From contig JASGJN010000026.1 of assembly GCA_049840735.1 (NCBI GenBank), positions 448,001 through 512,000 of the forward strand: a stretch of 64,000 nt of DNA, written 5' to 3'. Below are positions 11,898 through 30,567 of the stretch, in pieces. The translations under genes and the position numbers were made by a program. Origin of the DNA: Anaeromyxobacter sp. GTDB lineage: Bacteria > Myxococcota > Myxococcia > Myxococcales > Anaeromyxobacteraceae. The notes beneath the pieces were generated by a model, which made no database searches, was not told where the DNA came from, and saw only the letters and a program-made list of their open reading frames with translations. Numbering within the stretch: the first letter of the stretch is position 1; each line of letters starts with the position of its first letter.

Positions 11898-13400
11898 ATG
11901 CACGCGACCCGCTGGGCGTTCCTCGCGGCCTTCCTGGCCGCGTTCACTGCATGTGCGCACGGTCCCTCCGTCACCGGCGCTGGCGGTGAGCCGAAGCCGC
12001 TGCCGGCGCGCCCGTGGGGCGACGAGGTCCTCTACTTCGTGCTGGTCGATCGCTTCGCCGACGGCGATCCCGCCAACAACATCAAGGTGAAGGACGAGCA
12101 GGGCTACTTCCACGGCGGCGACCTCAAGGGCCTCACGCAGCACCTGGACGAGATCGCCGACCTGGGCGTGAGCGCCATCTGGATCAACCCGGTCCTGACG
12201 CAGGTGAAGGGCTACGTCACCGGCGCGGGCTTCGAGGACTGGGCCTACCACGGCTACTGGGCCGACGGGTACGACACGGTCGATCCGCGCTTCGGCACCG
12301 AGCAGGACCTGAAGGACTTCGTCAACGCCTGCCACGCGCGCGGCATCCGCGTGCTGCTGGACGTCGTCTACAACCACGTCGGCTACGACTCGACCTTCAT
12401 CTACAAGAAGGAGACCCGGAACCTCTTCCGGTCCGGGATCAACGGCCAGTGCGGCGAGGGCGACGACCTCACCGCGTGCCTGGCCGGCCTGCCCGACTGG
12501 AAGACCGAGGAGGAGCCGGTCCGGCAGTTCCTGTTCGCGAAGCAGCTGGCCTGGGCCAGCAAGTACGGCTTCGACGGCTACCGGCTGGACACGGTCAAGC
12601 ACGTGGAGCCCGACTTCTGGGTCGAGCACTCGAAGCTTGTCGATCAGCAGCTGGGCAAGGACTTCTTCCTGCTGGGCGAGGTCTTCGGCGGGAACAAGGA
12701 GTCGCTCTCGCCCTACTTCGAGGACGACGCGCTGGACGCCGGGTTCGACTTCGAGTTCCAGGGCCAGGCCACCGCCTGGGGCATGGGCCGGATGCGCAGC
12801 GTCGCGATGGCGAAGTACCTCGAGACCCGCCACCGCATCCCGAAGAACCGGTGGATGGCCCAGTTCCTCTCCTCGCACGACGTGACCGGCGCCCTGAAGC
12901 TGGCCGGCGGCGACGTGGACGCCTTCCGGCTGGCGGCCACGCTGCAGCTCACCGCCATGGGCATCCCGACCATCTACTACGGCGAGGAGGTGGCCCGGGA
13001 CATCGGCCAGTGGCCCGCCAACCGCTCCGACATGCCCTGGGGCGACAAGGCCATCGAGCCCGGCGCCGGCAAGCCGCGGAACGAGGCGCTGCGGGCGTAC
13101 TACAGGCAGCTGATCGGTATCCGCCGCGCCCACACCGCCTTCTCCCGCGGCACGCAGGAGAAGGTCTTCGCTGACGGTGACGTCCTGGCCTTCCTTCGCC
13201 GTGACACGAATGACGCGGTGGTGGTCTGCCTGAACCGGGGCACACAGCCTGCCACCCTCAAGGTACCGGCTCCCAAGGAATGGGGACAGGGCACGGTCAC
13301 CGAGCTGATCGAGGGCAAGAAGGTTGCCGTGACCGAAGGTTCGGTCGATCTGGTGATCCCGCCTAAAAGCGCCCGGATCCTGGGCACGAAGGCGCGGTAG
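11898..13400 (+). CDS. GH13 alpha-amylase-family lipoprotein
   Basis: Lipobox FTAC. DRFADGD, GGDLKG, YHGYW, DVVYNH, GYRLDTVKH (nucleophile), GEVF, SHD, YYGEE. Confidence 0.9.
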   Translation: MHATRWAFLAAFLAAFTACAHGPSVTGAGGEPKPLPARPWGDEVLYFVLVDRFADGDPANNIKVKDEQGYFHGGDLKGLTQHLDEIADLGVSAIWINPVLTQVKGYVTGAGFEDWAYHGYWADGYDTVDPRFGTEQDLKDFVNACHARGIRVLLDVVYNHVGYDSTFIYKKETRNLFRSGINGQCGEGDDLTACLAGLPDWKTEEEPVRQFLFAKQLAWASKYGFDGYRLDTVKHVEPDFWVEHSKLVDQQLGKDFFLLGEVFGGNKESLSPYFEDDALDAGFDFEFQGQATAWGMGRMRSVAMAKYLETRHRIPKNRWMAQFLSSHDVTGALKLAGGDVDAFRLAATLQLTAMGIPTIYYGEEVARDIGQWPANRSDMPWGDKAIEPGAGKPRNEALRAYYRQLIGIRRAHTAFSRGTQEKVFADGDVLAFLRRDTNDAVVVCLNRGTQPATLKVPAPKEWGQGTVTELIEGKKVAVTEGSVDLVIPPKSARILGTKAR

Positions 13401-13567
13401 CCGATCGAGGTATTGACGAAACGCGAAATTGGAAATTCGGCGCCGGACAATGCAGTGGCGAATCGTCCGGTACCCATTTGGCCTTTACCTGCGGCCCCCG
13501 ATCGGGTTTAAGACGAGCACGCTTTCCGACGGGCCTGGCCGCAGTACTCGCTGAGCAGGGGTGTGAC

Positions 13568-14656
<1,089 letters not shown>

Positions 14657-14691
14657 AGCGCACCCGGTCCCGCAGGCAGGAGGTGGTGACG

Positions 14692-15892
14692 ATGAGGAAG
14701 CTGTCTCTGCTCGCCCTCGCCGTTCTTGGGCTCGCCGCGCTCCCCGCAGCGGCCGCCGATCTGGTCGTGTGGCACGCGTACCGCGGCGCCGAGAAGGTGG
14801 CGTTCGAGAAGGTGGTCGCGAACTACAACGCCCGGCCCGGCGCCAAGGCGAAGGTCGCGCCGCTGGCCGTCCCGTACGACGCGTTCGCCGACAAGATCTC
14901 GGCGGCCGTGCCCCGCGGCAAGGGCCCCGACGTCTTCATCTACGCGCAGGACCGCCTGGGCGGGTGGATCGAGGCCGGCAAGACGGTGGAGCCGATCGAC
15001 TTCTACGTCGACGACGCCATCCGCTCCCGGTACATCCCGACCACGCTCGACGCGATGACCTACAACGGCAGCCTCTGGGGCCTGCCGCTGAACTACAAGG
15101 TCGTCAGCCTCATCTACAACAAGAAGCTGGTCCCGACGCCGCCCAAGACCACCAACGACCTGGTGGCGCTGGCCAAGAAGCTGACCAACAAGACCAGCGG
15201 CAAGTTCGGCCTCGCCTACGAGTACGGCAACTTCTACTTCAACGCGATCCTCTTCAACGGGTTCGGTGGCGGCGTCTTCGACGCCAAGGGCAACCCCACC
15301 ATGAACTCGCCCGAGAACATCAAGGCCTTCGAGTACCTGATGAAGTGGAAGGGCATGGGGTTCCTCCCCCGCCGAGCCCTCGCCCACCCTGATCACCTCG
15401 CTCTTCAACGAGGGCAAGGCCGCCATCGTCTTCTCCGGCCCCTGGTTCCTCGGTGAGGTCGCCCCGGACATCGAGTACGGCGTCGCGCCGCTGCCGATGA
15501 TCTCCGAGATCAACAAGCCCCTGCGCCCGTGGATGACGGTCGAGGGCGTGTACGTGACGGCCGGCTCGCAGCAGAAGGAGGCCGCCTTCGACTTCGCCAA
15601 GTACCTGACCGACGTCGACGCGGCCAAGATCATGGCGCTCGAGGGCCGGCAGAGCCCCGCCAACGCCAAGGTCTACGAGGACTCCAAGGTCGCGAGCGAC
15701 GCCATCCTGGCCGGCTTCCGCAAGCAGGTCGAGGTGGGCATCCCGATGCCGAACGTCCCCGAGATGACGATGGTCTGGTCCCCCGCGACCACGGCCGGGA
15801 ACACCATCCTCCGCGGCACGCCGCCGAAGGATGCCCTCGCCAAGGCCCAGGCCACGGTCGTCAAGGACGTGCAGGGCCTCCGCAAGAAGTAA
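14692..15892 (+). CDS. malE: Maltodextrin-binding protein (apparent +1 frameshift in a C run at ~15366)
   Basis: Signal peptide, LVVWH, GKGPDVFIYAQDRLGGW, LIYNK. After the frameshift: LFNEGKAAIVFSGPWF, PMPNVPEM..VW. Confidence 0.85.
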
Positions 15893-15953
15893 GTGAACCA
15901 TTGCCGCGGGGTCCGCGCCGAGCGGACCCCGCGGTGCACCGCTGGAAGCGAAC

Positions 15954-17943
15954 GTGACCACGACGACGAAGACACCTTCGTATCGCCATCGGTTCCTGGC
16001 CGGCCTGGCCGCTGCCGCCCTGCTGGGCGCCGGGCTCGGGCACGTGGCCCTGCAGGCCGGTCGCGACTCGATCGTGGGCGCTCGCGAGCAGCGGAAGGCC
16101 ACGGCCTCCGCGCTCATGCTGGCCGACCTGGTGCAGCGCGCCGGTGGCAAGGGCGACCAGGTCCGCCAGGTCGTGGACACCTGGGCCAGCCAGGCGCCCA
16201 AGCCGGCCGCCGCCCAGGTCATCCTGCTCAGCCCGCCCACCATGGAGGCCTTCGCCGCCAGCGGTCCGGGCGCGCCGCCGGTGGGCGACCCCGCGCCGCG
16301 CGACCTGCGCCGGGCGGGCCCCAACACCGAGAAGCCGCTCTACGACCTCGTCCAGGGGCTGCGCGCCGCGGTCGGCAACAACCGCGACGGCGTGAGCGCC
16401 ACCAAGCGCGAGATTCGAGGTGGTCTCCGACGGCGACCGCCTCGCGGTGGCCGTGCCGCTGGAGCAGCAGGGCGCCGACGGCGCCGCCGCCGACGTGATC
16501 GGCGCGGTCCGCATCCTGGTCCCCGCCGAGCCCGCCGGGGCCACCCCGCTGTGGCCGCTGCTGCTGGCCATCCTGGCGCCGGTGGCGGTGATCGCGGCGG
16601 CGCTGCGCTTCCTGCCCGACCGCGCCTGGCCGATGTTCGCCGCCACGGCGGTGGCGCTGGCCCTGTCGCTGGGCGCCTACTTCGTCTGGGCCCGCGGTGA
16701 GGCGCAGGACGCGCGGGTCGACGCGCACCAGGACGTCTCGAAGCACGTGAAGGCGCTGCAGGCCGAGGCCATCACCATCTCCAACAGCCACGGCATCGCC
16801 GCCACGGCCGTCCCCCCGGGCAGCTGGGACGCCGGCCCGGAGCGCCGCCCGCTGGGCTACCTGCAGCCCAACGGCGACCTGGACCGGGCCCGGATCGACG
16901 CCACCGGCGCCGAGGCGGACGGCTCGGTCCTGCGGGTGATCTGGGTGCTGGCCGGCCTGGCGCTGTTCGTGCTCGCCACCGTCGGCTTCGGCGGCGTCCA
17001 CAAGGTGGCCGCGGGCTTCTGGAAGCACCGCACGGCCTACGGCTACATCACGCCGGCCATGGTGGGCGTGACGCTGCTGGTCTTCTTCCCGTTCTTCTAC
17101 GGCGTGACGCTGTCGTTCACGAGCAGCGACCTGCACACGGTCCACGCCTCGCCGTTCGACATCTGGATCGGCCTGCGCAACTACGCCACCATCCTCGGCG
17201 ACTGGCAGGTCGCGACCATCACGCCGGCCGGCGAGCTGTCGCTCAACTTCACCAACTTCTATTACACGTTCCTGTTCACGGTCCTCTGGACGGTCACCAA
17301 CGTCGCCATCGGCGTCACCGGCGGCCTGATCCTGGCCCTGATCCTGAACACCAAGGGGCTGGCCCTGCGCCCCATCTACCGGGTGGTGCTGATCCTCCCG
17401 TGGGCCATGCCGAACTACATCACCGCGCTGATCTGGCGCGGCATGTTCCACCGCCAGTTCGGCGTGGTGAACAACTTCCTGGCCATCTTCGGGGTGGAGC
17501 CGCTCAGCTGGTTCGACAACCCGGTCACCAGCTACCTGACCGCGCTCGCCACCAACGGCTGGCTCTCGTTCCCCTTCATGATGGTGGTCTCGCTGGGCGC
17601 CCTGCAGTCCATCCCGGCCGACATCTACGAGGCGGCCCGCGTGGACGGCGCCACCCGCTGGCAGCAGTTCAAGGCCATCACGCTGCCGTCGCTCAAGCCT
17701 GCGCTGGTCCCGGCCATCATCCTGTCGGTGGTCTGGACCTTCAACATGTTCAACGTCATCTACCTGGTGACGGGCGGTGAGCCGGGCGGCGCGACCGACA
17801 TCCTGGTGACCCAGGCGTACAAGTACGCGTTCCAGCAGTACCGCTACGGCTACGCGGCCGCGTACTCCACCATCATCTTCGGGATCCTGCTCGTGTACGG
17901 CGTGTTCCAGAACCGCATGACCAAGGCGTCGGAGGGCATCTAG
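15954..17943 (+). CDS. malF: Maltodextrin ABC permease MalF-like with long N-terminal extension (apparent frameshift ~16414)
   Basis: ORF 15954 joins ORF 16420 if AGATTCG is read as AGATCG. C-terminal half has ILPWAMP, EAA motif YEAARVDGA, FNMFN. Confidence 0.8.
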
Positions 17944-17945
17944 CC

Positions 17946-18839
17946 ATGGCGACGACGAAGCGAAGCCGCCGGGGCGACGAGCTGCCGCACGCGCCGCTGC
18001 ACGTGCTGCTGGTGCTGGCGGTCTTCACCACGCTCTACCCGATCTTCTGGGTGCTCACGATCGCGTTCTCGGGCCGCCAGAGCCTGGCCATCGCCGATCT
18101 GCCGTCCGACCCGACCACCTGGGACCGCCTGCGCGCGGTCATGCCCTGGCCGGCGCACTTCTCGCTCCAGAACTTCGCCTCCGTGTTCTCGGATCAGCCG
18201 TTCATGCTCTGGATCCTGAACTCGGCGGTGGTCTCGGTGGCCACCACGGCCCTGGGCGTGTTCCTGGCCTGCACCGCCGGCTACGCCTTCTCCCGGTTCA
18301 AGTTCCCGGGGCGGCAGACCGGCATGATGTCCTTCCTGGTCTCGCAGATGTTCCCCGGGACCCTGATGCTGATCCCCCTCTACATCATCATCGTCAAGTG
18401 GCTGGGTCTGGGGAACTCCCGCACCGGCCTGGTCATCGTCTACGCGACGACCTCCATCCCGTTCTGCGTCTGGATGCTCAAGGGATATTTCGATACCATC
18501 CCGAAGGAGCTCGAGGAGGCAGCGGTGATCGAGGGCGCTGGGCCTGCGCGCATCTTCTGGACCGTCGTGTTGCCGCTGGCCAAGCCGGCCATCGCGATCA
18601 CGGCCCTGTTCTCCTTCATGACCGCCTGGAACGAGTTCATCCTCGCGGCCACCTTCATGGAGGACGACAAGCTCTACACCGCCCCTGTGGGCCTCCGCTT
18701 CTTCGTGGGCGGCTTCAGCTCGCAGTGGGGCTACTTCGCCGCCGGATCGATCATCGTCTCGGTCCCGGTCGTCTTCCTGTTCCTCTATCTGCAGAAGTAC
18801 CTGGTCTCCGGTCTCACCGCCGGGAGCGTCAAGGGCTAG
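17946..18839 (+). CDS. malG: Maltodextrin ABC permease MalG-like
   Basis: AYAFSRF-like GYAFSRFKF, QMFP, KGYFDTIPKELEEAA, VSGLTAGSVKG. Confidence 0.9.
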   Translation: MATTKRSRRGDELPHAPLHVLLVLAVFTTLYPIFWVLTIAFSGRQSLAIADLPSDPTTWDRLRAVMPWPAHFSLQNFASVFSDQPFMLWILNSAVVSVATTALGVFLACTAGYAFSRFKFPGRQTGMMSFLVSQMFPGTLMLIPLYIIIVKWLGLGNSRTGLVIVYATTSIPFCVWMLKGYFDTIPKELEEAAVIEGAGPARIFWTVVLPLAKPAIAITALFSFMTAWNEFILAATFMEDDKLYTAPVGLRFFVGGFSSQWGYFAAGSIIVSVPVVFLFLYLQKYLVSGLTAGSVKG

Positions 18840-18887
18840 CCACCGCCTCGGGGGCGGGTGCAGCCACTCACAAGGAGGAGTGTAGGT

Positions 18888-21308
<2,421 letters not shown>

Positions 21309-21340
21309 CCTTCACCGCGTAGCTACAGCAGAGGCAGTGA

Positions 21341-21374
21341 GAGGCCGGGAGGGAGGCGACTCCCTCCCGGCCTC
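21341..21374 (+). terminator. Perfect 15-bp stem-loop between lamB and the next gene
   Basis: GAGGCCGGGAGGGAG-GCGA-CTCCCTCCCGGCCTC. It has no clear U tract, so it may be an mRNA-stabilising hairpin rather than a terminator. Confidence 0.55.
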
Positions 21375-21436
21375 GTCGTTCAGCAGGCAGTTGAATACCG
21401 ACCGCTTCGGATCGTCCCGTCTACGGAGGAGAGACC

Positions 21437-21907
21437 ATGATGAAGAAGCTCATGATGCTGTGCGGTCTGCTGGCTGCCGTCGCGTTCGCGCCGGCCACCC
21501 AGGCCGAGGATCTCAAGCTGCCCGAGGGCCAGGTTGCCGTTCACTACTTCCGCGCCGACGGCTCCTACGACGGCTGGGGCCTCCACGTGTGGGAGTCCTT
21601 CCAGGCCAAGGAGGAGGCCGGTGACGAGTTCGCGCTCAAGGAGATGAGCGACCGCCCCCTGCCCGGCGTGACCTGGTTCAAGCCGCTGCCCCAGTCCGGC
21701 AAGGACGACTTCGGCGCGTACTGGCTGCTGCCCGAGAAGGAGTTCAGCAACGGCCGCGTGAACTACATCCTTCACAAGGGCGACAAGAAGGACCAGTGCA
21801 ACAAGGACATGTTCTTCCTGATCAAGGACTCCCGCGAGATCTACATCAACTCCGGTGACTGCTCAATCTACACGTCCAAGGACGCGGCCCTGAAGGCCCG
21901 CAAGTAG
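21437..21907 (+). CDS. Secreted stand-alone pullulanase-associated (CBM41-like) domain protein
   Basis: Signal peptide ending TQA. VHYFRADGSYDGWGLHVW, KDDFGAY, YILHKGDKKD are characteristic of the PUD/CBM41 module. Confidence 0.8.
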   Translation: MMKKLMMLCGLLAAVAFAPATQAEDLKLPEGQVAVHYFRADGSYDGWGLHVWESFQAKEEAGDEFALKEMSDRPLPGVTWFKPLPQSGKDDFGAYWLLPEKEFSNGRVNYILHKGDKKDQCNKDMFFLIKDSREIYINSGDCSIYTSKDAALKARK

Positions 21908-22530: not shown

Positions 22531-25500
22531 ATGTCCTCCATCTCACGGCTCACGGTCCTGACCGCCGCGCTCGCGGCGCTGGGCCTCGCCTGCTCTCGCC
22601 AGGAGGCGCAGCTCGGCGCGCCCATCCGCACGTCCGCAGCCGCCCCCATCGCCGCCGGCAACACCGGCGCCCGCACCGGCCACGTGGCGGTCGCGCTCCC
22701 CACCGGCAAGATCCTCATCGCCGGCGGTCGCGGCAGCGTCGCGGGCACGCCCCTGGCCACGGCCGAGCTGTACGACCCGACCACCGGCGCCGTCGCCGCG
22801 ACCGGCCCGCTGACCACCGCGCGCGCCGAGGCCACCGCCACGCTGCTCGCCGACGGCCGGGTGCTGGTGGCTGGCGGCCACGGCGCCGCCGGCGCGCCGC
22901 TGGCCAGCGCCGAGCTCTACGACCCGGTCGCCGGGACCTTCTCGGCGGCGGGCAGCCTGACCAGCGCCCGCGCGGGCCACACCACCACCCGGCTCTCCAG
23001 CGGCGTGGTGCTGGCGGCCGGCGGCCAGGGCGCCTCGGCGCCGCTCGCCTCCGTCGAGGCGTACAATCCGGCCACCAACCTGTGGACCGCCGCCCCCGAC
23101 CTCGCCGCCGCGCGCGTCAACCACACCGCCACGCTGCTCCCCTCCGGCGCCCTCCTGATCGCCGGCGGCGAGGGCGGCGTCCCCTCGGTCTCCGCCGAGC
23201 GGTACACCCCCGGCGCCGGCTCGGCCGCGCTGCCGGACATGGCCACGGCCCGCAGCAAGCACACCGCCACGCTGCTCCCCGGCGGCGACGTGCTGATCGC
23301 CGGCGGTGGCGACGGCGCCGGCCCCACCGCCTCCGCCGAGGTGTTCGACGGCGCCGGCTTCTCCGGCGTGGGCGACCTGAACGCCGCGCGCCTCGACGCC
23401 AGCGCCACCCTGCTCCCCGACGGCCGCGTGGTCGTGGCGGGCGGCGAGGGCGCGAGCGGCCCCCTGGACTCGATCGAGGTCTACTCCGGCACCACCTTCG
23501 GCCCCGGCGGCCTGCTGGACGCCGCCCGCACCGGCCACACCGCCACGCTGCTCCTGGACGGCCGCGTCCTGCTGGTGGGCGGCGCCGGCGCCTCGAGCGT
23601 GCTCACGCTGGCCGAGGCCGTCGCCCCGATGGGCGGCGACTGGTCCGACGCCGGGACCGTGCTGGCGGGCCGCTACGGCCACGCCTCGGTCCTCCTCCCC
23701 GACGGCCGCGTCCTGGTCACCGGCGGCGTCAATCCCTGGGGCGGCTACCTGGCCACCACCCAGCTCTACGATCCGTCCGCTGGCTGGTCCACCGCGCACT
23801 CGATGGCCAGCGCCCGCGCGTTCCACTCCGCGACGCTCCTGCCCAGCGGCCTGGTGCTGGTGGCCGGCGGCAAGGGCGGCCCGAACAACTTCCGCGACAC
23901 CGCCGAGCTGTACGACCCGGCGTCCGACACCTGGACCGCCGCGGGCTCGATGACCAGCCCGCGCTCGAACCACACCGCCACGCTGCTGGGCAACCGGCAG
24001 GTGCTCATCACCGGCGGCGAGACCGCCGGCGGCGAGCTGAACAGCGCCGAGCTCTACGACGCGACCACCGGCTTCGCGGTCACCGGCGCCATGGCCGAGG
24101 CGCGGTCGCACCACACCGCCACGCTGCTGCCCGAAGGCACGGTGCTGGTCACCGGCGGCAGCGATGGCACGCACGCAGGGCTGGCCTCCGCCGAGGTCTT
24201 CTACCCGCCGAGCAATGCCTTCGTGCAGGTCGGCAGCATGTCCGTGGGTCGCGCCTCCCACACGGCCACGGTCCTTCCGAACGGGAACGTGCTGATCGTC
24301 GGCGGGATCGACCCTGTCTCCGGTCCGCAGGCCCTCGCGGAGGTGTTCATCTCCACGGGCTTCGTGTGGGGCTCCGCCGGGACCCTGGTCACCCCGCGCG
24401 GCGATCACGCCGCCGTCCTGCAGCCCAACGGCGACCTGCTGGTCATCGGCGGCCGCGCCGGCGCGGCCGGCGGCCTGCACGACGTCGAGCGCTGGGACGC
24501 CGCCACCTCCACCTTCGAGCAGCTCCGCCCGCTCTCCAACGCGCGCCGTGACTTCACCGCCACGGTCCTGCCCGACGCCACCGTGCTGGTGGTGGGCGGC
24601 GACACCGTGGTCACCGGCAACGGCGCGGAGGTCTACGACGCGTACGCCCTCACGCCGGCCGTCTACGCGCCCACCCTGGCCGGCCCGATGCCCATCCGCG
24701 TGCCGGGCGCCCTGCTGGACCTCTCCGGCACCGGCCTCACCGGCGTCTCCGAGGGCTCCTCCGGCGCCACCACCTCCTCGGCCGTGAACCACCCCATCGC
24801 CGTCCTGGAGCGCGAGGGGAACGAGGGCGTGCTCTACGCGCCCGTCACCCGGTTCACCACCACCAGCGCCACCGTCCGCCTGCCTGGGCTGCAGCCCGGC
24901 TGGTGGTGGGTGCGGGTCTACGCCGCCGGCGTCCCGACCCGCGCCTGGCCGCTGCAGGTGCTCGATCCCTTCATCGTCGACCCGGCCACCGTGACCGTCC
25001 CGCCGCGCGGCAGCTACGCCTTCTCCGCGACCGGCGCGAGCGGCACCGGCTACGTCTGGTCCATCGCCCAGGCGGGCAGCCTCCCGGGGACCACCATCGA
25101 CGCCGCCTCCGGCGTCTACACCGCCGGCTCCACCGGCGACACCACCGACATCGTCGAGGTGGAGGACTCGAGCCACAACACCGCCCAGGCGGTGGTGACG
25201 GTGGGCCCAGGCGTCTCCATCACCCCGGCCGACCCGCAGGTCCCGCCGCGCGGCTCGGTGGCCTTCTCGGCCGCCGGCGGCTCCGGCGCCGGTTTCCAGT
25301 GGGCCATCGCCACCAACCTGTCCGGCGGCGCCATCGACGCCGCCTCGGGCGCCTACACCGCCGGCGCGAGCGGCGGCGTGACGGACGTGGTCCAGGTGAC
25401 CGACTCGCTCGGCAACATCGCCACCACCACCGTGCGCGTCACCACCGCGCTCGAGATCAGCCCGACCGAGGCCGACACCACCCCGCTCGGCACCGTCACC

Positions 25501-27675
25501 TTCACCGCCAGCGGCGGCAGCGGCGAGGGCATCACCTGGTCGGTCTCCACCAACGCCTCCGGCGGCTCGATCGCAGGCGGCGTCTACACCGCCGGCCGCA
25601 CCGGCAGCGTGGACGACGTGGTCCGCGTGACCGACTCGGTGGGCAACGTCGCCGAGGCCGTCGTCCACGTCAGCGCCGGCATCAGCATCACCCCGCCCGG
25701 CACCACCGTGGCGCCGGGCGCCGGCGCCGCCTTCACCGCCACGGGCGGGACCGACACCGGCTTCGTCTGGGCCCTGACCACCAACGGCTCCGGCGGCACC
25801 ATCGACGCCGCCACCGGCGCCTACGTCGCCGGCACCGCCAACGGCCCGCGCGGCCAGGTCACCGACGTGGTCACCGTGACCGACTCGCTGGGCAACCTCG
25901 CCAGCGTCAACGTGACGGTCACCCCCGGCATCACCATCTCGCCGGCCAACCCCGGCGCCCACCCCGGCGAGTCCATCACCCTCACCGCCAGCGGCGGCAG
26001 CAACGCCGGCTACACCTGGACCACCGTCACCAGCACCTCCGGCGGCGGCGTCACCGCCGGCGGCGTCTACACCGGCGGCACGCAGCCCGGCACGGTGGAC
26101 GTGGTCCGCGTGACCGACTCGCTCGGCAACACCGCCGAGGTCGAGGTGGTGGTCTACCCCGAGTGGAAGGCCACCGGCTCCGGCTGCACCTCGTCCGGCG
26201 GCAGCTCGGGCGGCCTGGCCCTGGCGCTGATGGGCCTGCTGCTGGCGCTCCGCGCCGGCCGGCGGTCCTCCCGCTCCTTTCGCAAGGGCGCGGCGGCGCT
26301 GATCCTGATCGGCGCCGCGGCCACCGCCCAGGCGCAGGAGGCCTCCCGCGCCTTCGTCGTGCAGCGCTTCCAGCCCTCCGGCGGCGCGTACGACGTGCTG
26401 GGCGTGGAGTCGGCCCAGACGCCCGGCCACCTGAAGTTCAGCGGGCAGCTCTGGCTCAACTACGCCAGCCGCCCGCTGGTGCTGGTGGCGCCGAACATGG
26501 AGGACGTGGCGCTGGTGAAGAGCCAGACCGGCATCGACCTGGCGCTGTCGCTGGGCCTGACCGACTGGGCCGAGGTGTCGGTGGTCGCGGCGGGCGTGCT
26601 CGACCAGACCAGCGAGACCAACCGCTTCGTGCCGCCGCAGCTGGCGGCCGACCTGACCAGCCCCGGCTTCTCCGACCTGCGCCTCATCCCCAAGGCCCGG
26701 CTGCTGGACTGGAAGGGCCTCCGGCTGGGCGTGTCCGTCCCGGTGACCTTCCCCACCGGCGACGCCGACTCCTACCTGGGCCACGACGCCGTCACCTTCG
26801 CGCCGCGCGCCCTGGTCGAGGTGGACACGCTCCCCTGGCTGCGCCTGCTCCTCAACGGCGGCGCCGTCATCCGCGAGGATCGCCAGCTGGTGAACCTCAC
26901 CGTCGGCAACGCCTGGACCTACGGCGTCGGCGCCGAGGTGCCGTTCATGGTCGGGCAGCAGCGCCTGTCCGCCATCGGCAGCCTGGCCGGTGAGATTGGG
27001 ATGGACGACTCGTCCGCCCAGGCCAGGCCGCTGGAGGCGCTGGCCGGCCTGAAGTGGCTGCACCGGTCCGGCCTGTCGCTGGCCGCCGGCGGCGGCCCCG
27101 GCATCGGCGAGGGCTACGGCACGCCCGAGTACCGCGTCTTCTTCCAGCTGGGCTGGACCAACGCCAATCCGAAGCGGTCCGGCTACACGCCGCCGCCTCC
27201 GCCGCCGCCCGCGCCGAAGGAGGAGCTGAAGAAGGAAGAGCCGAAGAAGGAGGAGCCCAAGGCCGAGCCCACGCCTCCGCCGCCCCCGCCGCCGGTCGTC
27301 ACCCCGCCGCCCGCCGAGGAGCAGGAGGAGGAGCTGCGGATCGACACCCGCATCTACTTCGGCTTCAACAAGAAGGACCTCAAGCCCGAGTACCAGAAGA
27401 CGCTGGCCGAGCTGGCCCAGGTCATCGCCTCCGACCCGCGCTACCGCCACATCCGGATCGAGGGCCACGCCGACGACCTCGGCGCCGAGGAGTACAACCA
27501 GTGGCTCTCTGAGCAGCGCGCCCAGACGGTGAAGAAGTACCTGGTGAAGCACGGCGTCGACCCGAGCCGCATCGAGGTGATCGGCTACGGCAACCGCCGC
27601 CCGTCCGAGCCCGGCAAGACCAAGTCCACCCGCGCCAAGAACCGCCGCGTCGAGTTCGGGGTCAGCTCGCACTAA
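22531..27675 (+). CDS. 1714-aa surface protein: lipoprotein signal, 14 kelch blades, 5 Ig-like repeats, internal MYXO-CTERM-like motif, second signal peptide, OM beta-barrel, Pro-rich linker, OmpA C-terminal domain
   Basis: LGLAC21. 14 repeats of R..HTATLL..G.VL..GG..AELYD. Five ~80-aa F.A.GG...W....G.YTAG...DVV.VTDS.GN repeats. GSGC-x-hydrophobic-RAGRR. EGHAD..N..LS..RA..NRRVEF. Confidence 0.85.
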   Translation: MSSISRLTVLTAALAALGLACSRQEAQLGAPIRTSAAAPIAAGNTGARTGHVAVALPTGKILIAGGRGSVAGTPLATAELYDPTTGAVAATGPLTTARAEATATLLADGRVLVAGGHGAAGAPLASAELYDPVAGTFSAAGSLTSARAGHTTTRLSSGVVLAAGGQGASAPLASVEAYNPATNLWTAAPDLAAARVNHTATLLPSGALLIAGGEGGVPSVSAERYTPGAGSAALPDMATARSKHTATLLPGGDVLIAGGGDGAGPTASAEVFDGAGFSGVGDLNAARLDASATLLPDGRVVVAGGEGASGPLDSIEVYSGTTFGPGGLLDAARTGHTATLLLDGRVLLVGGAGASSVLTLAEAVAPMGGDWSDAGTVLAGRYGHASVLLPDGRVLVTGGVNPWGGYLATTQLYDPSAGWSTAHSMASARAFHSATLLPSGLVLVAGGKGGPNNFRDTAELYDPASDTWTAAGSMTSPRSNHTATLLGNRQVLITGGETAGGELNSAELYDATTGFAVTGAMAEARSHHTATLLPEGTVLVTGGSDGTHAGLASAEVFYPPSNAFVQVGSMSVGRASHTATVLPNGNVLIVGGIDPVSGPQALAEVFISTGFVWGSAGTLVTPRGDHAAVLQPNGDLLVIGGRAGAAGGLHDVERWDAATSTFEQLRPLSNARRDFTATVLPDATVLVVGGDTVVTGNGAEVYDAYALTPAVYAPTLAGPMPIRVPGALLDLSGTGLTGVSEGSSGATTSSAVNHPIAVLEREGNEGVLYAPVTRFTTTSATVRLPGLQPGWWWVRVYAAGVPTRAWPLQVLDPFIVDPATVTVPPRGSYAFSATGASGTGYVWSIAQAGSLPGTTIDAASGVYTAGSTGDTTDIVEVEDSSHNTAQAVVTVGPGVSITPADPQVPPRGSVAFSAAGGSGAGFQWAIATNLSGGAIDAASGAYTAGASGGVTDVVQVTDSLGNIATTTVRVTTALEISPTEADTTPLGTVTFTASGGSGEGITWSVSTNASGGSIAGGVYTAGRTGSVDDVVRVTDSVGNVAEAVVHVSAGISITPPGTTVAPGAGAAFTATGGTDTGFVWALTTNGSGGTIDAATGAYVAGTANGPRGQVTDVVTVTDSLGNLASVNVTVTPGITISPANPGAHPGESITLTASGGSNAGYTWTTVTSTSGGGVTAGGVYTGGTQPGTVDVVRVTDSLGNTAEVEVVVYPEWKATGSGCTSSGGSSGGLALALMGLLLALRAGRRSSRSFRKGAAALILIGAAATAQAQEASRAFVVQRFQPSGGAYDVLGVESAQTPGHLKFSGQLWLNYASRPLVLVAPNMEDVALVKSQTGIDLALSLGLTDWAEVSVVAAGVLDQTSETNRFVPPQLAADLTSPGFSDLRLIPKARLLDWKGLRLGVSVPVTFPTGDADSYLGHDAVTFAPRALVEVDTLPWLRLLLNGGAVIREDRQLVNLTVGNAWTYGVGAEVPFMVGQQRLSAIGSLAGEIGMDDSSAQARPLEALAGLKWLHRSGLSLAAGGGPGIGEGYGTPEYRVFFQLGWTNANPKRSGYTPPPPPPPAPKEELKKEEPKKEEPKAEPTPPPPPPPVVTPPPAEEQEEELRIDTRIYFGFNKKDLKPEYQKTLAELAQVIASDPRYRHIRIEGHADDLGAEEYNQWLSEQRAQTVKKYLVKHGVDPSRIEVIGYGNRRPSEPGKTKSTRAKNRRVEFGVSSH

Positions 27676-27741: not shown

Positions 27742-27782
27742 AGGCCCGGTCACCTTCCGAGGTGGCCGGGCCTTTCTGTTGT
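27742..27782 (+). terminator. Intrinsic terminator after the kelch/OmpA gene
   Basis: AGGCCCGGTCACCT-TCCG-AGGTGGCCGGGCCT stem followed by TTCTGTTGT. Confidence 0.7.
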
Positions 27783-28869: not shown

Positions 28870-30567
28870 CTACCTGAGCCGCCAGATCCCGCTCCCCCGC
28901 CCCGGCAGCGTGGCCCGCCAGCCGGTGCCGGACTTCACCAGCCTCCCCTTCCCATCCACCAGCAGCTTCTCCGCCGCGGCCGCGGTCACCTCCAGCACCC
29001 CGGTGTCCACCGGCCGGCTGCCCAGGTTGTGCACCACCAGCACCGTCTCGTCGCCGGCGCGGCGGAGGAACGCCACCACTGTCCCGCGCCCCTCCGGCAC
29101 CGTGAGCAGCTGCAGGTCGCCGCGGGAGAGCGCGGCCGAGGCGTGCCGCACGCGGATGAGCGTGCGGTAGCGCGAGAGGACGGACTTCGGGTCCTTCGTC
29201 TCCCTGGCCACGTTGGCCTTGTCGGCGCCGGGCGCGAAGTCCTCCCACGCCTCCGAGGCGGCGGTGAAGCCGTGCGTGGGCGTGGCGTCCCAGGGCATGG
29301 GCGTCCGCTTCTCCTCGTCCTGGTCGCCCTCGCCGTTCTCCATCCCCAGCTCCTCGCCGTAGTAGATGAACGGGGAGCCGGGGAGGGTGAGCAGCAGCGA
29401 GCCGGCCAGCTTCAGCTTCTCGGTGTTGCCCAGCACCAGCGAGCCGAGTCGGCGCTGGTCGTGGTTGGTGAGGAAGGGGGCATCCACCGCGCCCTTCGGA
29501 TACGCGGCCTGGACGGCCTGCAGCGTCGAGACCAGGTCGTCGGCCCGGCCGCCCGCGGCGGCGCTGGCCAGCGCGGTGGCCAGCGGGAAGTCGAAGAGCA
29601 GCTGCAGCTCCTCGCGCGCGTCGCTGCCGTAGTAGGGCGCGATGTCGTCGGTGGTGGACCAGACCTCGCCCACCAGCGCCGCGTCGGGGCGAACGGTCCG
29701 GACGGCGGCGCTGAACTCCTTCAGGTAGACGTGGGTCTCGGGCAGGTCGGCCTGCGTCTCGGTCTTCTCGTCCTCCATCAGGTAGCGGATGGCGTCGAGC
29801 CGGAACCCGTCCACGCCCTGGTCCAGCCAGAACCGGGCGATGCGCTTGGCCTCCTCGCGCACCTCCGGGTTGCGGTAGTCGAGGTCGGGCATGCCGCCCC
29901 AGAACACGCCGTAGAAGTAGGCGCCCTTGCGCTGGTGCCAGACCTTGCCGGAGGGATCCCACGGCTGCCCCCAGTCCGGATCGTCCTGCCGCCAGACGTA
30001 CCAGCCGCGCTTCGGGCTGTCCGGCGAGGAGGCCGACTCGCGGAACCAGGGGTGGACCTCGGAGGTGTGGTTGAGCACCAGGTCCACGATCACCTTGAGG
30101 CCGCGCTTGTGGGCCTCCGCCAGCAGCCGCTGGAAGTCGGCGTTGGTGCCGTAGTCCTTCTCGATCTTCTCGTAGTCCACCACGTCGTAGCCGTGGTAGC
30201 TGGGCGACTCGAAGACCGGCATGAGCCACAGCGCGTCCACGCCCAGGTCGGTGGTGGTGGCCGGGTTGCCGTCGTTCAGGTAGTCGAGGCGCGAGATGAG
30301 CCCCTGCAGATCGCCCTTGCCGTCCTTGCCGCTGTCCTGGAAGGAGCGGACGAAGACCTCGTAGAAGACGGCTCCCTTCCACCATGGGTTCTCGCCGGCA
30401 GACGGCGGCGGCGGAGGCGGGGGAGGCGGGGGAGGAGGCGGCGGCTTCGGTGCCTCGGCCACCGGCGCGGTCGCGGGCGGCGGCGCGGGGGGCGGCTGGG
30501 ACGGCTTGGGCGGCGCGCTGGCGCAGCCGGCGACGAGGCTGAGCAGCAGGGCGAGGGAGCGGCGCAT
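28870..30567 (-). CDS. GH13 alpha-amylase-family lipoprotein with poly-Pro linker
   Basis: Lipobox VAGC, Pro-rich stalk, [51 protein letters not shown]. Confidence 0.9.

Follow-up and report, generated by a model that had tools for sequence, protein, structure and literature searches.

The closest described counterpart of the gene considered here is MXAN_5598 of Myxococcus xanthus, which was reported as an atypical open reading frame (ORF) with a large adhesin-like N-terminal region, an internal MYXO-CTERM tag, a β-barrel and an OmpA domain (Guo, Haft and Wall, 2025; PMC11980579). In the part of that article covered here, MXAN_5598 is likened to TraA plus TraB, its N-terminal part is proposed to be processed, and internal MYXO-CTERM tags are called rare, an ArtA substrate of Haloferax and LPXTG fusions being cited as other internal sorting tags. 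A second signal, or a way in which the barrel is freed, does not come up in the same text; the drawing in its Table S1 was outside the scope of our survey and may bear on this. TraA and TraB were reported to occur in a 1:1 ratio (PMC12045341). Here we analyze a gene of the MXAN_5598 kind from Anaeromyxobacter sp. (assembly GCA_049840735.1, contig JASGJN010000026.1, positions 448,001 to 512,000 of the forward strand; this whole stretch of 64,000 nucleotides is called the window and positions are counted from its first letter). The gene (22531..27675, forward strand) encodes a predicted polyprotein precursor of 1714 amino acids (aa) and is a further example of the published oddity, with a passenger, an internal tag, a barrel and an OmpA domain in one ORF. 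At the junction of its two halves the precursor is probably cut twice at the inner membrane, which would release a surface protein held by a lipid anchor and, separately, an anchor protein of the outer membrane.

Bacterial partner proteins are normally co-expressed via operons. Polyproteins with internal export signals that are split by proteases are typical of viruses and eukaryotes, and to our knowledge few examples exist in bacteria. In viral glycoprotein polyproteins signal peptidase cuts at an internal signal, and the Bradyrhizobium fbcH precursor, the product of one gene, reportedly gives rise to two proteins in the same way. In contrast to the gene described here, these polyproteins are not known to have a sorting tag, a second protease or a reusable junction with swappable partners, and in the ArtA and LPXTG cases neither a barrel as partner nor a further export signal is known to us. 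No such junction was found in the consulted parts of the Haft preprint, the 2012 and 2019 TraA papers, the 2025 TraAB preprint and two GlyGly-CTERM papers, and word searches of the literature returned no account of it, with subscription papers (e.g., Sah et al., 2020) outside their scope. MXAN_5598 bears out the expectation of a preliminary description of the locus, made from the DNA alone, that similar fusions may already exist; the conserved second signal, the portability of the junction and the multi-unit frames described below were not found in print.

An internal MYXO-CTERM-like tag followed by a predicted second export signal

The ORF translation contains zero stops over 1714 codons and the third-position GC content is 0.92–1.00 in each 300-base block, the junction included, in agreement with the preliminary description of a single uninterrupted ORF carrying three targeting-like signals. 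The first signal (22531..22593) is a lipoprotein-type signal peptide ending in C21. This residue ends the N-terminal hydrophobic stretch, as had been described, and is kept in all five close full-length homologues (P0002, P0005, P0006, P0007 and P0009), but the lipobox is loose and not canonical because position -3 is occupied by Gly. Only two cysteines are present in the protein, i.e., C21 and C1219.

C1219 (codon at 26185) opens the internal MYXO-CTERM-like tag (26185..26265). It is followed by a Gly/Ser spacer, a hydrophobic helix at 1229–1240, no 11-mer of the protein being more hydrophobic (Kyte-Doolittle (KD) value 2.70), and an Arg cluster. The layout of a MYXO-CTERM (Gly-rich motif with Cys, hydrophobic helix, Arg cluster) is present as claimed, but the tag is not C-terminal, as about 470 residues come after it, and the check with hidden Markov models (HMMs) gave 16.3–19.8 bits for the excised tag on TIGR03901 (cut-off 20) and 14.7 bits at best on TIGR03382 (cut-off 15.85).

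Signal 2 (26251..26334) consists of a basic region at 1241–1253 with six Lys/Arg residues and one Ser more than had been quoted, a hydrophobic region from 1254, in which 1254–1264 is the second most hydrophobic 11-mer (KD 2.45), and the site A1266-Q-A1268|Q1269, whose A1268 is invariant in 13 homologues. The regions of a signal peptidase I-type signal (basic, hydrophobic, A-x-A) are all present, as judged by a home-made pattern with controls and not by SignalP; this pattern was found in 0/503 control windows taken from passenger regions, and the earlier assignment of an AxA-type signal is upheld. In a structure model of residues 1210–1549 the tag and signal 2 are predicted to form a helical hairpin (helices 1227–1242 and 1248–1261), at low confidence (predicted local distance difference test (pLDDT) of 47–67).

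Downstream of the junction, a predicted outer-membrane β-barrel (26335..27177), a Pro/Glu/Lys-rich linker (27199..27321) and an OmpA-like peptidoglycan-binding domain (27355..27645, residues 1609–1705; PF00691, 92.1 bits) follow, as had been proposed. The match to the TraB model NF033763 begins at residue 1257 at profile position 4 and reaches 191.6 bits (cut-off 700), compared to 975.8 bits for a true TraB; the match to PF13557 is weak (16.9 bits). The barrel/OmpA half is 28% identical to a true TraB, but it has no TSP3 repeats (no PF02412 match), the Pro-rich linker occupying their place. In the passenger, residues 22–723 and 815–1219 gave no match to the TraA models NF033759 and TIGR04566 and contain no Cys-rich repeats. 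The proposed likeness to a TraA-TraB pair holds for the layout, a tagged surface protein followed by a barrel and an OmpA domain, but not for family membership; moreover, true traA and traB are two genes with a 4-base overlap. Nothing suggests outer-membrane exchange by the protein.

The barrel model (pLDDT 84.7) matches best FapF (PDB 5O65; Z 20.8, root-mean-square deviation 3.1, 225 aligned residues) and COG4313 (Pput2725, PDB 4RL8; Z 20.3), although at only 14–19% identity, next to KdgM (Z 19.8) and autotransporter barrels (Z 15.6–17.8). To TraB, with which a comparison had been suggested earlier, the barrel is a distant homologue. Since KdgM is tied with FapF and COG4313, the match reflects a general small-barrel fold from which a function cannot be inferred.

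Conservation of both signals in distant relatives

Barrel loci were gathered (120, of which 10 duplicates were dropped) and classed by the Cys-helix-Arg tag alone, resulting in 56 fused and 54 separate loci among 110; as the loci were selected, many of them for long frames, and are related, these and the following counts are neither prevalences nor independent. The rule missed one locus that is fused by eye (L076), and in about three loci it mistook an upstream Cys for that of the tag. The fused loci represent 10 family codes and 17 genus codes. A second hydrophobic run is present in all 56 (median KD 2.72, compared to 2.74 in separate barrel genes) and is followed by AxA in 52/56, compared to only 6/56 after the first helix. 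The signal-like pattern was found in 45/56 fused and 46/54 separate loci, and AxAQ in 45/56 and 24/54, respectively, compared to 6/935 control windows. The second signal looks equally intact in fused forms and in free-standing barrels, the latter beginning the mature barrel at the same place. Among the excised fused tags, 51/56 were matched by TIGR03901, 25 of them above its cut-off, and 38/56 exceed the cut-off of TIGR03901 or TIGR03382.

A profile search of 1.84 billion representatives resulted in 2163 proteins at E ≤ 1e-30, 150 of which were listed. In a set overlapping the genome set, 166 proteins with a barrel start were examined, in 105 of which the barrel is preceded by 110 aa or more. 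Within these long proteins the Cys-helix-Arg tag is present in 97 by rule and in 104 including seven more by eye, the second hydrophobic run in 102 and AxA in 94, and the tag Cys is invariant in a 45-row alignment. Homologues retaining both internal signals in frame, for which the preliminary description had suggested a search, do exist in both sets. At the junction of P0101 both hydrophobic runs are kept and the Cys is gone, and this may be a decaying copy. The junction region was matched in 43/61 related genomes, several of those with the same junction being assembled in one or two contigs, and eight database homologues with 51–62% identity carry the same in-frame junction. The passengers of fused proteins are of several kinds (Ig, cadherin-like, TSP3, DUF11, Cys-rich, kelch) and can be longer than 4000 aa, and about half (36/68 by a loose pattern) begin with a lipoprotein-type signal.

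Fused and split forms

On a quick tree of the 110 barrels, for which the direction of change was not inferred, fused and split forms alternate, with at least 16 changes, eight of which are forced by well-supported branches; one clade of 49 rows contains 42 fused rows from four families. In two split pairs, L255 (2820 + 625 aa) and L256 (1792 + 546 aa), the first gene ends with the tag and the second opens with a full signal, and true traA/traB in L151 show the same arrangement across their 4-base overlap. At L122 (G113:C4:59889-62200) the tag seems to be deleted in frame, the second signal and the barrel remaining. Between ftsA and ftsZ, locus L257 carries a fused gene in which the second signal is also present and whose barrel shares 39% identity with that of the window; it is a relative of MXAN_5598 and not MXAN_5598 itself, as the vesicle peptide of the latter (see below) is not contained in it letter for letter.

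The junction beyond barrels and in multi-unit frames

From six genomes chosen for having fusions, 47 TIGR03901 loci were taken, of which 29 are terminal, one is false and 17 are internal. All 17 internal tags are followed by a second signal-like stretch, leading into a barrel in 12, a lipoprotein-type part in three and small domains in two cases. A junction profile, which also matches plain terminal tags, was then run over 81 genomes, and 27 further loci were picked for near-full matches, so that the second signal was partly selected for; 25 of them continue in frame (6 barrel, 6 lipoprotein-type and 13 signal peptidase I-type soluble) and two are terminal. L179 was discarded as a false tag without Cys, L206 and L217 turned out to be terminal, and no frame of L243 passed the filter. 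Among the parts seen downstream of the junction in L232, L226 and L216 are a multihaem cytochrome, a matrixin-type protease and a copper-monooxygenase-like lipoprotein. The parts of about 195 aa after the junctions of L159 (1586-2170) and L167 (1642-2220), one of them with weak small-barrel matches, are not preceded by the hydrophobic word described in the next section.

In the two-contig genome G126, a frame of 4051 aa (L235:1644-13796, reverse strand) carries four tags, three of them followed by a signal, and its CARDB/He_PIG/nidogen-like units are 30–34% identical to each other. Two-unit frames are present in seven other regions, some beside single-unit genes; related one- and two-unit genes stand in tandem in G131, G095, G107 and G116. 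The genome of the window itself contains a second case, a large gene divergent from the myxosortase gene in L254 (G000:C13:67948-74185), in which an internal tag is followed by a lipoprotein-type signal and which has intact counterparts in G020 and G009 (L156, L157 and L250).

Taken together, the junction is more general than the preliminary description had assumed, and we consider it somewhat more likely than not that it is a portable element of Myxococcota, at which two housekeeping proteases, myxosortase and signal peptidase I or II, split one ORF into separately targeted envelope proteins. The part behind the junction would be a barrel, a lipoprotein, an enzyme or another tagged unit, with up to four units per frame, and where it is a TraB-type barrel, the released protein would dock on it through a short strand preceding its lipidated Cys.

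A hydrophobic word before the tag Cys

The residues W1212–G1218 directly before C1219 (26164..26184) form a short word, in which W1212, G1216 and G1218 are invariant in 13 homologues. In the model of residues 1210–1549, residues 1210–1219 have a pLDDT of 87 with a predicted strand at 1213–1215; as the other strands of this construct all lie in the barrel half, this suggests that the pre-Cys strand might pair with the barrel. A hydrophobic pre-Cys word is present in 74/97 fused compared to 3/28 unpaired tags, by a pattern written after seeing the data. In a later set the pattern was found in 2/7 barrel junctions and 0/24 others, and a looser count (at least two hydrophobic residues before the Cys) gave 5/7 and 3/24. 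The pre-Cys word is associated with having a barrel as partner, with which it is predicted to pair.

Proposed processing and alternative explanations

Cutting a membrane hairpin twice, as put forward in the preliminary description, gives the best fit to the comparative data and is supported by the retention of both signals in distant relatives, by the split forms, by the machinery genes and by the predicted hairpin, the cuts themselves being inferred. Sec export would begin with signal 1 and C21 would be lipidated. Helix 1229–1240 might then stop the transfer, leaving the Arg-rich loop in the cytoplasm, and helix 1254–1263 might restart export, thereby forming the hairpin. A cut by signal peptidase I after A1268 would free the 446-residue barrel/OmpA half for insertion by the β-barrel assembly machinery (BAM) and for binding to the cell wall. 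By analogy with the TraA pathway (PMC11980579), C1219 would be lipidated, myxosortase would cut beyond C1219, and the type II secretion system would take the passenger of about 1200 residues to the surface. In a final step, to which we give roughly even chances, the word before C1219 would dock on the freed barrel; we propose that the products would in this way re-associate 1:1 and the passenger be tied to peptidoglycan.

The genome encodes a myxosortase (NF040914 core, 125.7 bits, cut-off 100), GspD (TIGR02517, 539.8 bits, cut-off 351.35), three signal peptidases I, all above cut-off, and BamA (312.7 bits, above cut-off). A profile search of this genome gave no match to NF033763 at the cut-off, and TIGR04566 gave no match in this 94%-complete genome, with the control also silent, so that an absence of traA is not established. 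For MXAN_5598, a peptide of the passenger half (741–755) is listed for 3/3 vesicle samples and for one membrane sample (supplement of PMC4158809).

Several points weigh against this interpretation. The tag of the window stays below the cut-offs of both HMMs (19.8 of 20 and 14.7 of 15.85 bits), P0101 lacks the tag Cys, and the barrel loci are a selected and related set. Some ATG, GTG or TTG codon lies between the Cys and helix 2 in 47/56 fused loci, and in L235 an ATG or GTG stands right before the Arg run at 2/3 junctions. Regarding the docking, the word is tethered to the barrel in the modelled construct and the model has no control, the pattern was retrospective and was recovered in few barrel junctions of the later set, and true TraA does not have the word. 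Finally, MXAN_5598 is represented by this single peptide in the supplement of PMC4158809, none coming from the barrel half, and as the search was tryptic only the peptide cannot distinguish cut from uncut protein.

Among the alternatives, the one that survives best, albeit as an unlikely one, is a single cut: signal peptidase I would free the barrel, the tag would remain unprocessed and the hairpin would hold the passenger, or myxosortase would cut and another protease would free the barrel. This would agree with the low HMM scores of the tag, with a passenger already lipid-anchored at C21 and with the finding that some TraA is still displayed at the surface when MrtX is lost (PMC11980579). 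It leaves unexplained why the tag Cys is kept in 104/105 long proteins and throughout the 45-row alignment, and why C1219 is one of just two Cys in the protein.

Slightly less probable is that the barrel is an export channel for its own passenger, similar to FapF or an autotransporter, and not the docking site of a passenger that leaves through the type II system. The fold matches to FapF, COG4313 and autotransporter barrels might be taken in this sense, but KdgM is tied with the first two. Furthermore, passengers can exceed 4000 aa in length and are often rich in Cys, the majority of tags are not paired with a barrel (29/46 are terminal), and TraA and TraB reach the outer membrane independently of each other (PMC12045341).

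We consider it improbable that an internal in-frame start, here M1234, is the main source of the barrel half, with two overlapping products and an incidental fusion as the result. There is an in-frame ATG at 26230, inside the first hydrophobic run, and an ATG lies between the Cys and helix 2 in 27/56 fused loci, to which the two L235 junctions can be added. However, no GGAG, GAGG or AGGA word precedes the ATG at 26230, and the basic linker 1241–1253 contains zero ATG, GTG or TTG codons, as the preliminary description had stated; the linker is free of starts in 41/56 fused loci, no such codon at all is present from the Cys to helix 2 in 9/56, including the close homologue L017, and a start together with a Shine-Dalgarno-like word was found in 2/56 only. 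These counts weaken internal initiation. Moreover, as there is no stop in frame, translation from the upstream start would still run through the barrel, and this product would have to be cut.

That the protein stays uncut, as a whole hairpin-anchored inner-membrane protein with two periplasmic halves, is very improbable: the confident barrel model matches outer-membrane barrels, AxA is kept after helix 2 and not after helix 1, and free-standing homologues begin the mature barrel at the same place. An assembly error merging two genes is largely refuted, since despite frame breaks in lamB, bamA and a myxosortase-adjacent gene, which make small indel errors in the assembly probable, the in-frame junction recurs in the eight homologues and in many other genomes and the codon bias is unbroken. 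These breaks lie near 20750 in lamB (window 19970-21308, split over two frames), in bamA (G000:C13:195500) and in the gene at G000:C13:72081 beside that for myxosortase. Of three read runs, with a word share of 4–5%, no piece among those listed spans the junction (26150–26350), which speaks neither for nor against an error there.

The passenger and its neighborhood

An AGAAAGG word lies 5 bases upstream of the ATG of the ORF, and a terminator-like hairpin with 14 pairs and a T-rich tail lies downstream of it (27742..27773). Long ORFs on the opposite strand and in alternative frames over the locus were rejected because the third-position GC content marks the forward-strand frame. The passenger contains 14 kelch blades (22660..24654; 13 by pattern and one by eye), which we infer to form two 7-bladed propellers, followed by a domain of about 105 aa that matched zero Pfam families (24655..24975) and five repeats of about 79 aa (24976..26163), which gave no match in Pfam or NCBIfam and might form an Ig-like stalk. 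An assignment as GlxA radical copper oxidase (NF052501) was rejected, as the scores were 77.9–87.2 bits with at least 800 needed and the kelch region contains no Cys; the GlxA cofactor requires a Cys. All matches in a protein atlas search were below 0.9 and are leads at best. Most likely, the passenger is an adhesin or a glycan binder.

In contrast to MXAN_5598, which lies in a cell-division (ftsA-ftsZ) context, the gene is located between lamB/pullulanase-associated domain (PUD) and alpha-amylase genes, and its passenger differs by consisting of kelch blades and repeats behind a lipoprotein signal. It is flanked by a maltodextrin uptake cluster (13367-21907 and 28870-30567), which comprises ATP-binding cassette (ABC) permeases, a glucodextranase-like protein, LamB, a PUD protein and an alpha-amylase. 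The homologous gene of G030 has the same neighbors, lamB on one side and an alpha-amylase gene on the other, and that of G034 comes after lamB. From this neighborhood and its partly kept order, a glycan might be suspected as the ligand of the kelch domains.

Implications

The proposal can be tested directly in M. xanthus, as MXAN_5598, an mrtX deletion and a reconstitution in E. coli are available (PMC11980579). The pre-Cys word allows a specific hypothesis on how tagged proteins recognize their barrels, and the junction might be of use as a linker for co-expressing envelope proteins in bacteria. Should the double cut be real, a junction of about 50 residues would fix stoichiometry in myxobacteria and route the products of one gene differently, i.e., via type II secretion, BAM or as lipoproteins, and many large myxobacterial ORFs annotated as "OmpA family" would be mis-described as single proteins.

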